52,736 nucleotides of DNA from Thermodesulfovibrionales bacterium (lineage in GTDB: Bacteria; Nitrospirota; Thermodesulfovibrionia; Thermodesulfovibrionales; CALJEL01), in assembly GCA_041082235.1 (NCBI GenBank), contig JBDOIG010000091.1:1-52736 (forward strand), written 5' to 3'. How positions within the stretch are numbered: position 1 is the stretch's first letter; the number at the start of each line of letters is the position of its first letter. The translations under genes and the position numbers were made by a program. Under the pieces are notes generated by a model. That model saw only the letters and a list, made by a program, of their open reading frames with translations. It was not told the DNA's origin and made no database searches. Below, piece by piece: positions 4,134 through 50,016 of this stretch.

Positions 4134-4697
4134 TTGCTCAGTGGAAGACTCGGTCATTTCCTTGATAGACCACTGAGGGTCATATCCTTAAAGATTAAGA
4201 TACACCCGAATATCCTGAGCATAACGGGCTTTATTATTACCTCCTTTTCAGCCTTTATAATTCCTGTCTTCCCCTTTTATGGAGGGCTGATCCTTTCCGC
4301 TGGTGGAGCCTTTGATCTTCTTGATGGCGCCGTAGCAAGGAACAGAAACCTTGTGTCAAGATTTGGAGCCTTCCTTGATTCAACACTTGATAGAATCTCT
4401 GATGCATTATTATTTACAGCGGTTTCTATCCTCTTTTATCTCAGGAGCGATATAAACCACAGTCTTCTTTCTATATCATGCCTTATATCGTCTTTTCTTG
4501 TGAGTTATACAAGGGCAAGGATAGAGGGTCTTGGCGGAGAATGCAGGATAGGCCTTGCAGAAAGGCCTGAGAGGATTCTTCTCCTCATAGGAGGACTTAT
4601 AACAGGATATATAAAACTCAGTCTCTGGATTATACTCATTGCATCTTTCATAACAACACTGCAAAGAATCCACCATGCCAGAAAGGTCTTAAGATGA
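4134..4697 (+). CDS. CDP-alcohol phosphatidyltransferase, likely phosphatidylinositol-phosphate synthase
   Basis: DxxDGxxAR...GxxxDxxxD motif plus SYxRAR...ERPER motif typical of PIP/AIP synthases. TTG start directly after the ino1 stop. Confidence 0.85.
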   Translation: MLSGRLGHFLDRPLRVISLKIKIHPNILSITGFIITSFSAFIIPVFPFYGGLILSAGGAFDLLDGAVARNRNLVSRFGAFLDSTLDRISDALLFTAVSILFYLRSDINHSLLSISCLISSFLVSYTRARIEGLGGECRIGLAERPERILLLIGGLITGYIKLSLWIILIASFITTLQRIHHARKVLR

Positions 4698-4885
4698 AGA
4701 GGTGTAAAAGAGAAGAAAAGGAAAGACTTATAAAGACCTCTGTATATCTTGAGGAGGAGGTCATTGAAAGCCTCAAGAAAAAGGCTGAGCAACTAACAGC
4801 CGAGACAGGAAAGAGATGGTCAACAGGCGGAGTTATCAGGCTTGCCCTCAGTGAATTTTTTACAAGAAGGGGAAAGATTATTTAG
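4694..4885 (+). CDS. Small ribbon-helix-helix (CopG-like) DNA-binding protein
   Basis: KTSVYL beta-strand, helix, STGGVIRLALSEFF helix. ATGA overlap with the upstream stop region. Confidence 0.65.
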   Translation: MKRCKREEKERLIKTSVYLEEEVIESLKKKAEQLTAETGKRWSTGGVIRLALSEFFTRRGKII

Positions 4886-47517: not shown

Positions 47518-48169
47518 AAATAATAAAATTATTAAAAAGATATTTCATATGCGATTACCTTATTTCAAAACTTATGCAGAATTGCTTGTTCTATTCAGAA
47601 CAATCATAAAATTCTTTTTTATGTGGTTAAAAAATGTATTATTTTTTGACCAAATGATCCGCTATCAATGTAATGAGGTAGGGAGAAATATTTTCTTCTG
47701 GGGTACATATCCACTTATACAGAATAAAGGATATATAAAAATAGGGGATAATGTTAGTTTTGTCGGTCGTAACAATATTATAGTGGGTTTTAATATTCCG
47801 GAGATTGAGAGGCCAACTTTAATAATTGGTAATAATGTAAATATTGGCTTTGGTTGCGAAATAAATGTTGGAGAAAAAGTCATTATTGGGGACAATGTAC
47901 TTATAGCTACTGGTGTTAGAATATTTGATAATAATTCTCATCCAACTAATCCTGTTAAAAGGATAAATAGAGAACCTTTGAGTAAAGATGATATAGCCCC
48001 TGTAATAATAGAAGATAATGTATGGATTGGCACCGGAGCTTTAATACTTAAGGGAGTGAGAATTGGAAAAGGTTCTGTAGTAGGTGCTTGTTCAGTTGTA
48101 ACAAAGGATGTCCCTGAAAATGTAATAGTAGTTGGTAATCCAGCGAGAATTGTAAAAGAAATAAAGTAA
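47498..48169 (+). CDS. Left-handed beta-helix O-acyltransferase
   Basis: Hexapeptide repeats; IEDNVWIG...GVRIG...SVVTKDVP...GNPAR. Confidence 0.9.
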   Translation: MNLAKFKNNKIIKKIFHMRLPYFKTYAELLVLFRTIIKFFFMWLKNVLFFDQMIRYQCNEVGRNIFFWGTYPLIQNKGYIKIGDNVSFVGRNNIIVGFNIPEIERPTLIIGNNVNIGFGCEINVGEKVIIGDNVLIATGVRIFDNNSHPTNPVKRINREPLSKDDIAPVIIEDNVWIGTGALILKGVRIGKGSVVGACSVVTKDVPENVIVVGNPARIVKEIK

Positions 48170-48250: not shown

Positions 48251-49108
48251 TTATTTTACTGTAAGATTTTGAGGGGGCGCAGGCGAGCCACAAGCTTTAG
48301 CCCGGTCCCAATTGAGAGGTCCTATCATCGGATTACCCTTACAGTCAACATTAAGGGGCTTATCTGTGGTTACTTCTACATCATCAATAAAAGCATACTG
48401 TGTCTTTGGAACTCCTCCATTCCAGTATGTAAATATATATGTTCCAAACTCTTTATCAACTATATCCGTTATCTCCAGCATCGTCTTATGATCCCTATCT
48501 TCTATTACTAAAATACCATCCTTCCATATTCTCATAACGGGAGATATGTTAGACAATTTTACATAAAGCTCTATACTCTGCCACTTTCCCCTGCTAAAAT
48601 AAACATTGGTAGTCGGTTGATAAGGTGTTATTTCGTTTGAAAGGACAATCCTCCCTTGATCATCGGAAAGTATTGATAAAATCCCTCGGGGGCTGTTGTC
48701 TATTGTAAGAATTCGTGCAGTCCTCAGAATCTTAAAAACTGGATGACTTGTAAAATCAAAATCCGGTGGAAAATAAACATACTCCCTTACCCATATTTCA
48801 TCATCGTGGAACAAAGGCGTGTGATACACGATGGTACCACCACACACCGGCCAGCAATCAGAGTCTTTGGGGAAAATAACCTTTGCAGATTTAGAGCCAC
48901 TATGGGAATTTTCACTTGAATAAAATGTTTGAGATAAGGCATCTGTGAACCCTGATGGTCCCTGAGCCTCTTGCCCGATAGTACCGAGCTCAAAATCAGC
49001 AGTTATTGTCCATGCATGTGCACGGATAGAAAAAATAGAAAACGATAGAATGATGAGGAAGACTTTAAAAATTGATACAATGAAGTTATTTTTTCTGTAT
49101 TTTTTCAT
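48251..49108 (-). CDS. Secreted jelly-roll (polysaccharide lyase/LamG-like) protein
   Basis: Signal peptide ending AHA-W, DFE, WVRxYVYFPxDFDF, K..R, GKWQSIExYVK, RIWKDG and YxxIDD pattern. AGGAGGAG RBS. Confidence 0.65.
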   Translation of the reverse strand: MKKYRKNNFIVSIFKVFLIILSFSIFSIRAHAWTITADFELGTIGQEAQGPSGFTDALSQTFYSSENSHSGSKSAKVIFPKDSDCWPVCGGTIVYHTPLFHDDEIWVREYVYFPPDFDFTSHPVFKILRTARILTIDNSPRGILSILSDDQGRIVLSNEITPYQPTTNVYFSRGKWQSIELYVKLSNISPVMRIWKDGILVIEDRDHKTMLEITDIVDKEFGTYIFTYWNGGVPKTQYAFIDDVEVTTDKPLNVDCKGNPMIGPLNWDRAKACGSPAPPQNLTVK

Positions 49109-49140
49109 GAGACACTCCTCCTTTCAACTAACTATTATAT

Positions 49141-49563
49141 TCAAGGTATCATTTTATATCCAGTATTTGAATAATCACTTTCATTACCATCTGCATCATA
49201 GGCAGTTACAGCGAAGTAATAAGTTCCACTTGTAAGATTTCTGATGGTATAAGAACATGTTTGTGGCTGTGCTGTACCAGGGCATGATGATGAACACGGA
49301 GTGCATCCTACATCTATTACTGTAGGGGATTTCCCATTAATCCAATAATAAATCTTATATCCTGCTAAATCATTAAGAGATGTCCCATCAGCATTTATTG
49401 TAGGAGAATCCCAGGTTAAAGTTGCAAAGTTGTTTGAGCCGCTGTTATTATCACTCATTTGAGTAGTTGCTCCACAACTAAAAAGCAATAGTGTCAATAA
49501 TGTAACAATGATATTAGGAGCCACTTTAATATAGCCCTTATATAAAGGTTTCAGTATTAACAT
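49141..49563 (-). CDS. Fibronectin type III domain lipoprotein
   Basis: ATG 49563 with GAGGAGG RBS, LFSC lipobox, TLTWDSP...LAGYKIYY...NLTSGTYYFAVTAYD..GNES.YSN. Confidence 0.82.
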   Translation of the reverse strand: MLILKPLYKGYIKVAPNIIVTLLTLLLFSCGATTQMSDNNSGSNNFATLTWDSPTINADGTSLNDLAGYKIYYWINGKSPTVIDVGCTPCSSSCPGTAQPQTCSYTIRNLTSGTYYFAVTAYDADGNESDYSNTGYKMIP

Positions 49564-49584
49564 TTTGGACCTCCTCAATAGCTT

Positions 49585-49619
49585 AAAAATAAAAGCCGCC
49601 AGAGTCAACTCTGGCGGCT
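49585..49619 (-). terminator. Intrinsic terminator, expression platform of the riboswitch
   Basis: Minus strand AGCCGCCAGAG-UUGA-CUCUGGCGGCU-UUUAUUUUU; its 5' arm overlaps the aptamer 3' strand. Confidence 0.85.
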
Positions 49620-49698
49620 CGGCGGACATGGGAGAAATTCTCCTTTAGTCCCGTTGCTCTGCGTCCCATGGTTTCCCATGGTTTGCTCTGAGCAGAGT
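49608..49698 (-). ncRNA. GEMM-I (c-di-GMP-I class) riboswitch, A20 variant
   Basis: Minus strand ACUCUG-CUCAG-A-GCAAACCAUGG-GAAA-CCAUGGGACGCAGAGC...GGACUAAAGGAGAAUUUCUCCCAUGUCC...GCCGC-CAGAGU shows P1, P2 with GAAA tetraloop, P3 with receptor, A47 and C92 equivalents. Confidence 0.92.
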
Positions 49699-49753
49699 GC
49701 AAAAACTTAAACCTAACAAAGGAAGCTCTTTCAAAGAGCCTTTTTACAATACC

Positions 49754-49796
49754 ATAATAGAAAATTTTTAATCAAATTTCTGTGATTTGAATCACA
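49754..49796 (-). promoter_or_regulatory. CRP-family box and -10 element for the riboswitch-led transcript
   Basis: TGTGA-TTTGAA-TCACA at 49781-49796; minus-strand TATTAT at 49759-49754. Confidence 0.7.
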
Positions 49797-50016
49797 AAAG
49801 GTTGTTTCAAATTCTGTAAATTCAAAAAGGGTCTAATTCTCAATAGATTTTATAGACATCAAATAAGAACGGAGAATTATACCAGTGCATAGAGCTATTT
49901 ATAAGACAGTGAGGATAGAGGTACCCAAAGCGGTGAAGATATAGAGGTGTGTTTAACATATTATAATTACCCTTACCTGCTTTCGAGGATAAGAACAACT
50001 TATAGAGAGGTGACAG

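Follow-up and report, generated by a model that had tools for sequence, protein, structure and literature searches.

In chaperone–usher pili, an Ig-like sandwich is encoded one strand short and the terminal peptide of the next subunit fills the gap. In cellulosomes, secreted carbohydrate-active enzymes are docked onto a scaffold by a small terminal module, the pairing being that of cohesin and dockerin. Exopolysaccharide loci can include genes for periplasmic lyases or hydrolases, such as AlgL, BcsZ, PslG and PelA, and we know of no tail resembling a fibronectin type III (FN3) strand on any of these enzymes. Here, we analysed a 52,736-nucleotide stretch of DNA from a Thermodesulfovibrionales bacterium (GenBank assembly GCA_041082235.1, contig JBDOIG010000091.1, positions 1 to 52,736; referred to below as the window). 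It contains a large polysaccharide biosynthesis locus that surrounds two minus-strand genes, the first for a small lipoprotein and the second for a secreted enzyme (Table 1). The lipoprotein carries an FN3 domain that lacks its first strand (strand A; such domains are called A-less below), and the enzyme ends in a peptide with the sequence of such a strand. We propose, as a reading to which we give an even chance of being right, that the enzyme tail would complete the lipoprotein FN3 fold in trans, giving a membrane-tethered polymer-processing enzyme when cyclic di-GMP (c-di-GMP) is high.

The C-terminus of the enzyme open reading frame (ORF) reads ...KACGSPAPPQNLTVK*. The terminal segment PAPPQNLTVK is the genome's own A-strand motif, because PPSPPLNLTAT, PPQPPINLTIT and PLPPQNLTMN stand a few residues ahead of strand B in complete FN3 domains that this genome encodes. 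No FN3 domain can come after the enzyme, since a convergent gene ends at 48169, 81 nt from the enzyme stop. The original prediction, which was made from the sequence of the window, had held that the enzyme ends in the first-strand motif of an FN3 domain with no domain behind it; the translation, the 81 nt gap and the cis motifs of the genome bear this out. In the AlphaFold2 model of the enzyme monomer, tail residues 274–285 have predicted local distance difference test (pLDDT) values below 50 and are unpacked, and the suggestion that the tail might pack on its own protein finds no counterpart in this model. As modelled, with low pLDDT values and with variable, low-complexity linkers in the family, the tail is free to dock.

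Conservation of the tail was assessed in the enzyme family. A profile search of 1.84 billion representatives gave 1374 enzyme relatives at E ≤ 1e-3, and tail statistics were calculated for the best 150 of these 1374 family representatives. Two motifs were counted, a strict one ([AP]Px[NGDSTA]Lx[VILAT], at most five residues from the end) and a looser one, and the null was obtained by shuffling each tail (200 shuffles). A 5–45-residue extension past the conserved GNxMIGP core is present in 92 of the best 150. The strict motif ends 24 of these 92 short-tailed representatives, compared with a shuffled mean of 0.36 and a maximum of 3 (~70-fold), and the loose motif ends 72 of them, where shuffling gave 29.6 on average and 40 at most. 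Core and motif are separated by −4 to 26 residues of low-complexity sequence (median 11). Ten of 15 close homologues (37–94% identity) stop after the tail motif, e.g. ...SKPTNLIVR*, ...SPPKNLR* and ...STPTNLEVKK*, and the tail is kept at the extreme C-terminus across homologues of 37–49% identity from several phyla. In the genome studied here, the strict C-terminal motif was found in one of 1981 ORFs of at least 150 aa, namely the enzyme itself. In a census of the ORFs of this genome, the enzyme, the small A-less FN3 lipoprotein and a genuine ORF with the tail each occur exactly once, and the two genes are adjacent.

The motif also keeps its position when the protein that bears it changes. Inserted domains leave it at the very end (L005, 584 aa; L038, 698 aa; P0123; P0180). 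It ends members of a second, weakly related family that resembles polysaccharide lyases (PL; L007, 317 aa; L012, 304 aa; L015, L018, L019, L092, L093 and L107–L109), and it ends proteins with no PL match (L090, 343 aa; L092, 383 aa; L093, 296 aa). In P0133 the enzyme is followed by a complete FN3 domain (Pfam profile positions 2–83 of 84), the A strand of which, PAAPTNLTA, lies at the tail position. In L017 a complete FN3 domain is fused at the N-terminus and the tail is absent. The strict tail occurs in one of 18 representatives with an N-terminal extension of more than 100 aa and in 26 of 128 without one, in metagenomic proteins of uncertain completeness; this is a weak trend towards N-terminal fusions that substitute for the tail. 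On sequence grounds, the tail is a conserved terminal module under selection. Because it is conserved at the C-terminus of homologues of 37–49% identity and in other protein families, a truncation relic, which the original prediction had named as an alternative, is excluded as a local accident.

In known C-terminal sorting signals, either the motif has a hydrophobic helix and basic residues behind it or the signal is a folded C-terminal domain of ~80 aa. The enzyme ends three residues past the Leu of its motif and has the features of neither PEP-CTERM nor LPXTG signals nor the C-terminal domain of the type IX secretion system.

Some homologues differ at their C-termini. At L002, from a betaproteobacterial metagenome-assembled genome, the enzyme frame shifts after ...WNGG (~4650–4790) and the tail ...VAPPSNLIVR* lies in another frame; the sequence reads as a frameshift or an assembly error. 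In L004 and L006 (Fibrobacterota), P0112, P0134 and P0136, the tail is replaced by a 70–140-residue extension with a ...YFAQL...-type ending, which we take to resemble the type IX secretion C-terminal domain. The C-termini of P0138, P0169, P0186 and P0192 consist of a hydrophobic stretch and then Arg-rich residues.

The lipoprotein opens with a signal peptide and the lipobox LFSC (Cys30), and FATLTWDSP comes after the polar linker GATTQMSDNNSGSNN. By sequence it is a bacterial lipoprotein, with a signal peptide and a lipobox Cys that is kept, with Gly next, in 34 of 36 aligned family members. The search for its relatives gave at least 81 proteins of 77–245 aa. The Pfam fn3 profile (PF00041) aligns lipoprotein residues 40–133 to profile positions 10–79 of 84 (26.6 bits, cut-off 25); since the match begins at position 10, the first-strand positions (1–9) are unmatched. 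In NCBIfam, all matches of the lipoprotein were below threshold. The AlphaFold2 model, calculated from a 36-sequence alignment, has six strands (residues 46–52, 66–75, 81–86, 102–108, 113–123 and 133–139) and no strand before residue 46, and the mean pLDDT of residues 31–40 is 51. VIA-align comparison with solved FN3 domains gave Z scores of 9–10 (for 2h41, Z is 9.8 and the root-mean-square deviation is 2.6 for 81 aligned residues); 146 chains have a Z score of at least 8, and many of the alignments begin at model residue 43–44. When the lipoprotein family profile is aligned with solved FN3 chains, the match sets in only at about residue 11–16 of the domain. In the 36 family members, the linker between Cys and strand B is 8–45 residues long (median 17) and rich in G/S/T/N/D/P, and the A-strand motif was found in the linkers of none of the 36 in its strict form and of one of the 36 in its loose form. 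By Pfam, AlphaFold2 and the linker motif scan, the lipoprotein thus lacks the complete seven-strand FN3 topology that includes strand A, and its FN3 domain begins at strand B with no A-strand motif ahead of it, as had been predicted.

The same type of FN3 domain is found in larger proteins directly after the signal-peptide cleavage site (e.g. ...AFAGQVTLAWDP), a position that leaves no space for strand A. These proteins continue with PKD and DUF4082 domains, with MopE-like repeats and CBM6, or with Big_7, and their Pfam fn3 matches begin at profile positions 8–13. The same FN3 subtypes also exist in complete form, with a normal A strand in cis (C39 and C95 in this genome; L048), so that the A-less forms are missing an element that is normal for the subtype.

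The lipoprotein model also contains a Cys-rich insertion, CTPCSSSCPGTAQPQTC (residues 87–101, 49261–49305), in loop C'–E, with pLDDT values of ~60; it is common to P0017 and partly to P0021 and P0022. The small FN3 protein P0046, a single case of uncertain completeness, extends past strand G with ...SVEPSAPSGCKVQ, an A-strand-like tail that, judged by its sequence, would permit head-to-tail chaining.

The two proteins have two features of a donor-strand complementation system, in that the proposed acceptor is encoded one strand short and a peptide matching the missing strand is present on a separate polypeptide. A complex of enzyme residues 254–285 with FN3 residues 31–140 was predicted in ESMFold2 using author-made alignments and three controls, in one of which the FN3 domain was kept and the tail was replaced. 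The interaction prediction score from aligned errors (ipSAE) was 0.55 (0.54, 0.56 and 0.55 in separate runs) compared with 0.01 for the best of the three controls, a result that the tool rates as 'weak support'. The runs share at least 85% of contacts, and the partner pLDDT is at least 71. Of 80 solved complexes, 58 reach the pass mark of the tool, as do two of 110 mismatched pairs, figures that are approximate here as our own alignments were used; passes at an ipSAE of 0.60 or below comprise only seven of the 80 solved complexes, plus both of the passing mismatches. The structural matches of the lipoprotein model in VIA-align include PDB entry 4m6a, by its title an N-terminally strand-swapped consensus FN3 domain, which by analogy would provide a precedent for a mobile FN3 A strand.

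Linkage between the tail and A-less FN3 domains was examined in 40 enzyme-centred loci (11 genomic and 29 metagenomic, several of them duplicates), with FN3 domains sought in the fetched flank. A strand-B-start FN3 domain was found in the flank of five loci (L002, L007, L012, L019 and L038), the enzymes of which all bear the tail, and in four of the five the FN3 gene precedes the enzyme gene on the same strand. None of the seven loci with tail-less homologues has a strand-B-start FN3 domain in its flank. The acceptor gene lies directly 5' of the tail gene or genes, on the same strand, at the locus studied here and at L002, L007, L012, L019, L090 and L092; at L003 and L005, an A-less FN3 domain is present on the same contig 7–8 kb away. 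In four of the five other genomes of the phylum with enzyme relatives (G160, G178, G184 and G226), a small A-less FN3 lipoprotein is encoded 0–8 kb from tail-bearing genes, and in G141 the tail gene follows the gene for a 1002-aa protein that ends in an FN3 domain. Because genomes are related, these counts overstate the independence of the cases. Tail genes are usually near an acceptor-like FN3 domain, and most acceptor-like lipoproteins are without a visible nearby donor. The co-occurrence that had been anticipated between tails and A-less FN3 lipoproteins is thus seen from the side of the tail genes, next to which genes for strand-B-start FN3 domains are enriched, and is much weaker from the side of the lipoproteins; the pairing is not obligatory, as the small A-less lipoproteins greatly outnumber the neighbours that bear a tail.

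Two further kinds of protein recur next to small FN3 lipoproteins. Proteins of 700–1000 aa adjoin them at L088 (3880–6090), L090 (8223–10652), L095 (4711–6819) and L101 (33–3053); these proteins have an A-less FN3 domain after the signal peptide and a conserved end, ...GQYELIIYKP*. The second kind is a protein of ~257 aa that ends ...FILLRPEFESISF (Table 1); where it accompanies small FN3 lipoproteins, sigma-54-type two-component genes are present as well.

Several observations weigh against completion of the lipoprotein fold by the enzyme tail. The core of the FN3 body has pLDDT values of 79–93 without strand A in the monomer model, and because the body folds confidently in this way the lipoprotein FN3 domain may be stable alone. 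The complex prediction is a score with no interface that would place the tail at the A-strand gap. Some tails stop one residue past Leu (...NLR*, ...NLQ*), which makes for a very short strand. The tail-bearing loci L001, L003, L005, L010, L015 and L021, each with at least 2.5 kb of upstream flank, have no A-less FN3 domain within 4 kb, and no A2-type FN3 domain (the domain of the lipoprotein family alignment A2) was found in the 7.3 Mb searched of genome G001, to which locus L001 belongs. Across 401 genomes of the phylum, A2-type FN3 domains are present in 212 and enzyme relatives in six. Among 20 lipoprotein-centred loci viewed at ±7 kb, only L090, L092 and L093 (and possibly L100) have a tail-bearing neighbour. 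In several operons (L007, L012, L019 and L092) there are two tail-bearing proteins per acceptor, and the linkage could merely reflect shared membership of exopolysaccharide loci. The original claim of completion in trans thus has anatomy, conservation and linkage on its side, together with the 'weak support' of the complex model.

The absence of a partner from some neighbourhoods would be expected if the tail were a tag read by another factor, in sorting, export or processing or as the ligand of another Ig or FN3 acceptor, with the lipoprotein a non-binding companion in the locus, e.g. a polymer-binding or scaffold protein. The six tail-bearing loci without an A-less FN3 domain within 4 kb and the 16–17 of 20 small FN3 lipoprotein loci without a tail-bearing neighbour both favour such a reader. 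So does the presence of other C-terminal modules at the tail position in homologues (L004 and L006; P0138, P0169, P0186 and P0192), from which the tail site appears as a general slot for sorting or anchoring signals. The tail itself is nevertheless unlike a PEP-CTERM or LPXTG signal, as neither a transmembrane helix nor a basic cluster follows the motif. The motif is specifically that of an FN3 A strand, with a whole FN3 domain in its place in P0133, and the complex model scores 0.55 against 0.01 for its best control, with a rating of 'weak support'. We consider a separate reader unlikely; it is the main rival of completion in trans.

The fused form in P0133 bears in addition on whether the tail could be a remnant of a former complete C-terminal FN3 domain that retains little function, with the six-stranded FN3 domain of the lipoprotein self-sufficient. 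This cis enzyme–FN3 form, the confident modelling of the FN3 body alone and the 20 of 92 short-tailed representatives that lack even the loose motif are in keeping with a remnant. Fixation at the extreme C-terminus at 37–49% identity in several phyla is unexpected of one, as are the ~70-fold enrichment over shuffled tails (24 compared with 0.36) and the recurrence of the motif on other protein families and after inserted domains, and we regard this explanation as improbable. Slightly more improbable still is that the tail packs on its own jelly roll or on a second copy of the enzyme, as in oligomerization. Jelly-roll edges can take an added strand, and paired tail-bearing paralogues are often adjacent (L005, L007, L012, L015, L018 and L019). 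Against this stand the disorder of the tail in the monomer model (pLDDT below 50), the long, variable and low-complexity linkers, and the retention of the tail when unrelated domains intervene (L005, L038 and P0123).

The AlphaFold2 model of the enzyme is a jelly roll with a pLDDT of 85.9. The top Foldseek match is 8q2a, TtX122B, the function of which is unassigned (E 5.9e-9). Lyases among the matches are 6kzk, Aly36B of PL36 (E 2.2e-8, TM-score 0.54/0.63), 5gmt (PL14), the glucuronan lyase 2zzj, vAL-1 and 7nde (PL7A), so that the nearest lyase families by Foldseek are PL36, PL14, PL20 and PL7. Lectin-like folds match the model as well, and for this reason the fold alone is no proof of lyase activity. 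The enzyme scores 25.4 bits against Pfam PF14099 (E 1.5e-5), which is below the cut-off of 29.9; family representatives lie above this cut-off, e.g. P0228 (39.3 bits) and P0234 (34.9 bits). No match was found in an NCBIfam scan of the enzyme. In the alignment of close homologues, R108, Y112, E180, Y182, R193, N230 and Q237 are invariant, as is W33, which opens the conserved body. The UDP-glucose/GDP-mannose dehydrogenase in the locus is circumstantial evidence for a uronic-acid polymer. Going by its modelled fold, the enzyme is probably a lyase whose substrate is the uronic-acid polysaccharide that the genes around it produce.

Some large proteins that have no signal peptide end in the enzyme domain, here with no tail behind it (P0139, P0194, P0199, P0202, P0209 and P0234). 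P0139 matches Pfam Phage-tail_3, which suggests that tail-less enzyme domains in large proteins are used as phage depolymerases; a phage-tail-like context would thereby fit polysaccharide-degrading activity.

The leader of the operon contains a c-di-GMP-I riboswitch aptamer that matches Rfam RF01051 over model positions 1–87 of 87 with 65.8 bits (gathering score 35, E 1.3e-12), the only RF01051 match in the 2.54-Mb genome. A 12-bp intrinsic terminator comes next (49620–49593). Its 5' arm overlaps the 3' end of the aptamer, and its hairpin is part of the fold of lowest energy calculated without ligand (−57.8 kcal/mol, z −4.47). Because the terminator forms without ligand in this fold, ligand binding should favour read-through, and the operon is probably switched on by c-di-GMP (a predicted ON switch). 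A longer ORF that reaches 49629 is the riboswitch terminator read as protein. Riboswitches of the c-di-GMP-I class were found in three of 15 sources, ahead of the FN3-plus-tail operons of L007 and L002 (in the latter a GGC variant) and ahead of the tail genes of L015, and the riboswitch-preceded tail loci, including the one studied here, belong to different lineages. Riboswitch control as a general feature of small FN3 lipoproteins was rejected: it was found in one of 12 lipoprotein-centred loci (L088), where it lies 5' of a large A-less FN3 protein.

In assembled contigs from two DNA runs, the summed depth of the leader (49591–49798) reaches 35.9 and 48.8, compared with 13.6 and 20.2 across the genes. 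Within 49591–49798, the sequence of several contigs breaks off or diverges, and one of them runs into another ribosome-binding site and start codon. In view of the higher depth and the diverging contigs, the community may hold further copies of the leader before other genes. No reads mapped from two metatranscriptome runs of the study that is the probable source, with about 12% of each run read, a sample that does not bear on transcription of the operon.

If the enzyme tail completes the lipoprotein FN3 domain in trans, the c-di-GMP riboswitch would turn on a two-gene operon for an A-less FN3 lipoprotein and a Sec-secreted jelly-roll enzyme. After export, the tail would insert beside strand B of the lipoprotein FN3 domain, where Leu282 and Val284 would fill its half-open core. 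Donor-strand complementation would then hold the enzyme non-covalently on the membrane-anchored lipoprotein, near the site of polymer export. The anatomy of the two proteins, the conservation of the tail and of the missing strand in their families, the riboswitch and the linkage of the genes are shown by the data; the binding and its geometry, the membrane and its face, the enzyme substrate and the direction (ON) of the switch are inferred. The complex could sit at the periplasmic face or at the cell surface, so that display, as the original prediction had it, is one possible outcome. On a wider view, which we hold with somewhat less than even confidence, the PxxPxNLxV* tail and the strand-B-start FN3 domain would be the two halves of a general 'tag and catcher' system for docking that occurs naturally in several phyla, often under the direct control of c-di-GMP riboswitches. 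The orphan A strand on diverse secreted enzymes would complete A-less FN3 domains on a lipoprotein anchor or on a scaffold with carbohydrate-binding and PKD domains, and matrix-remodelling enzymes would in this way be assembled at the envelope.

The locus around the two genes encodes a Polysacc_synt flippase, a Wzy_C protein, glycosyltransferases of the GT2 and GT4 families, a hexapeptide acyltransferase, a methyltransferase and the dehydrogenase mentioned above. No terminator-like site was found by the terminator scan in the 32-nt spacer between the lipoprotein and enzyme genes. Neither gene is present in the three genomes of the genus that were searched (G045, G307 and G325, 95–100% complete); for this reason the pair appears to be accessory, and the two genes were probably gained together. 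The coordinates of the features are given in Table 1.

Table 1 Features of the lipoprotein–enzyme operon (positions in the window) and of a protein that recurs beside small FN3 lipoproteins (positions in the loci named)
Feature	Position	Strand	Basis
Lipoprotein gene, 140 aa, one FN3 domain without strand A	49141..49563	minus	ORF, GAGGAGG ribosome-binding site, Pfam fn3, family alignment, AlphaFold2 model
Lipoprotein signal peptide (residues 1–29) and lipobox Cys30	49474..49563	minus	Sequence LLLFSC
Lipoprotein polar linker GATTQMSDNNSGSNN (residues 31–45), in place of strand A	49429..49473	minus	Translation, AlphaFold2
Lipoprotein six-stranded FN3 body (B, C, C', E, F, G; residues 46–140), Cys-rich loop 87–101	49144..49428	minus	AlphaFold2, VIA-align
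Intergenic spacer, 32 nt, AGGAGG before enzyme ATG	49109..49140	minus	Sequence, terminator scan
Enzyme gene, 285-aa secreted jelly-roll protein resembling polysaccharide lyases	48251..49108	minus	ORF, Pfam, AlphaFold2, Foldseek
Enzyme Sec signal peptide (residues 1–32; ...RAHA then WT)	49013..49108	minus	Sequence; model helix 8–26
Enzyme linker (residues 266–273, ending Cys273) after conserved GNPMIGP core motif	48290..48313	minus	Family alignment
Enzyme C-terminal tail GSPAPPQNLTVK (residues 274–285), orphan FN3 A-strand motif, proposed donor strand	48254..48289	minus	Translation
c-di-GMP-I riboswitch aptamer in operon leader	49610..49697	minus	Rfam RF01051
Intrinsic terminator, 12-bp stem and T-run, proposed expression platform	49583..49620	minus	Terminator scan
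Protein of ~257 aa ending ...FILLRPEFESISF	L092 2461–3207, L093 5777–6550, L094 5425–6198, L097 7859–8635, L098 3789–4508, L103 6876–7655, L105 10890–11603		

If completion in trans is correct, secreted enzymes could be attached to a membrane anchor or scaffold independently of sortase and dockerin at the cost of a tag of ~10 residues, and donor-strand complementation would be widened from the building of pili to the tethering of enzymes. A widespread unannotated C-terminal motif would be explained, and many small 'FN3 domain lipoproteins' would be given a function. The two-protein module would also tie c-di-GMP signalling to remodelling of the biofilm matrix, and the pair would offer protein engineering a small natural peptide and domain.

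No description of an FN3 A-strand tag or of a split-FN3 anchor was found in the open full-text literature (subscription journals and supplementary files lie outside it). A related structure is by its title PDB entry 4m6a, in which the A strand of an FN3 domain leaves its own domain and completes another copy in trans; as the title has it, complete domains of an engineered homodimer swap strands in that entry, whereas the present case would be a natural split between two genes with the donor on an unrelated protein. As regards genomic setting, the locus resembles those of AlgL, BcsZ, PslG and PelA in that a secreted enzyme, here predicted to cleave polymer, is encoded inside a polysaccharide locus; it differs in the fold family, which is a jelly roll near the PL36, PL14, PL20 and PL7 lyases and TtX122.

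As in chaperone–usher pili, the lipoprotein has an Ig-like β-sandwich that is one strand short and a separate polypeptide has a short terminal peptide. The missing strand is the first (A) strand of FN3 here and the last strand in the pilin, an enzyme C-terminus takes the place of the N-terminus of the next subunit as the proposed donor, and no chaperone or usher is encoded nearby. The proposed product is a 1:1 tether, not a polymer, and its binding is a prediction. As in cohesin–dockerin docking, a terminal module on diverse secreted enzymes would dock on an anchor or carbohydrate-binding scaffold, the acceptors being a lipoprotein and FN3–PKD–DUF4082 or FN3–CBM6 proteins in place of the cellulosome scaffold. 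The tag is, however, an unfolded peptide of ~10 residues, and docking would complete the fold of the acceptor, not join two folded domains; in the Pfam scan, the pair contains neither cohesin nor dockerin. By analogy, the proposed system would thus resemble both donor-strand complementation and cohesin–dockerin docking while belonging to neither.

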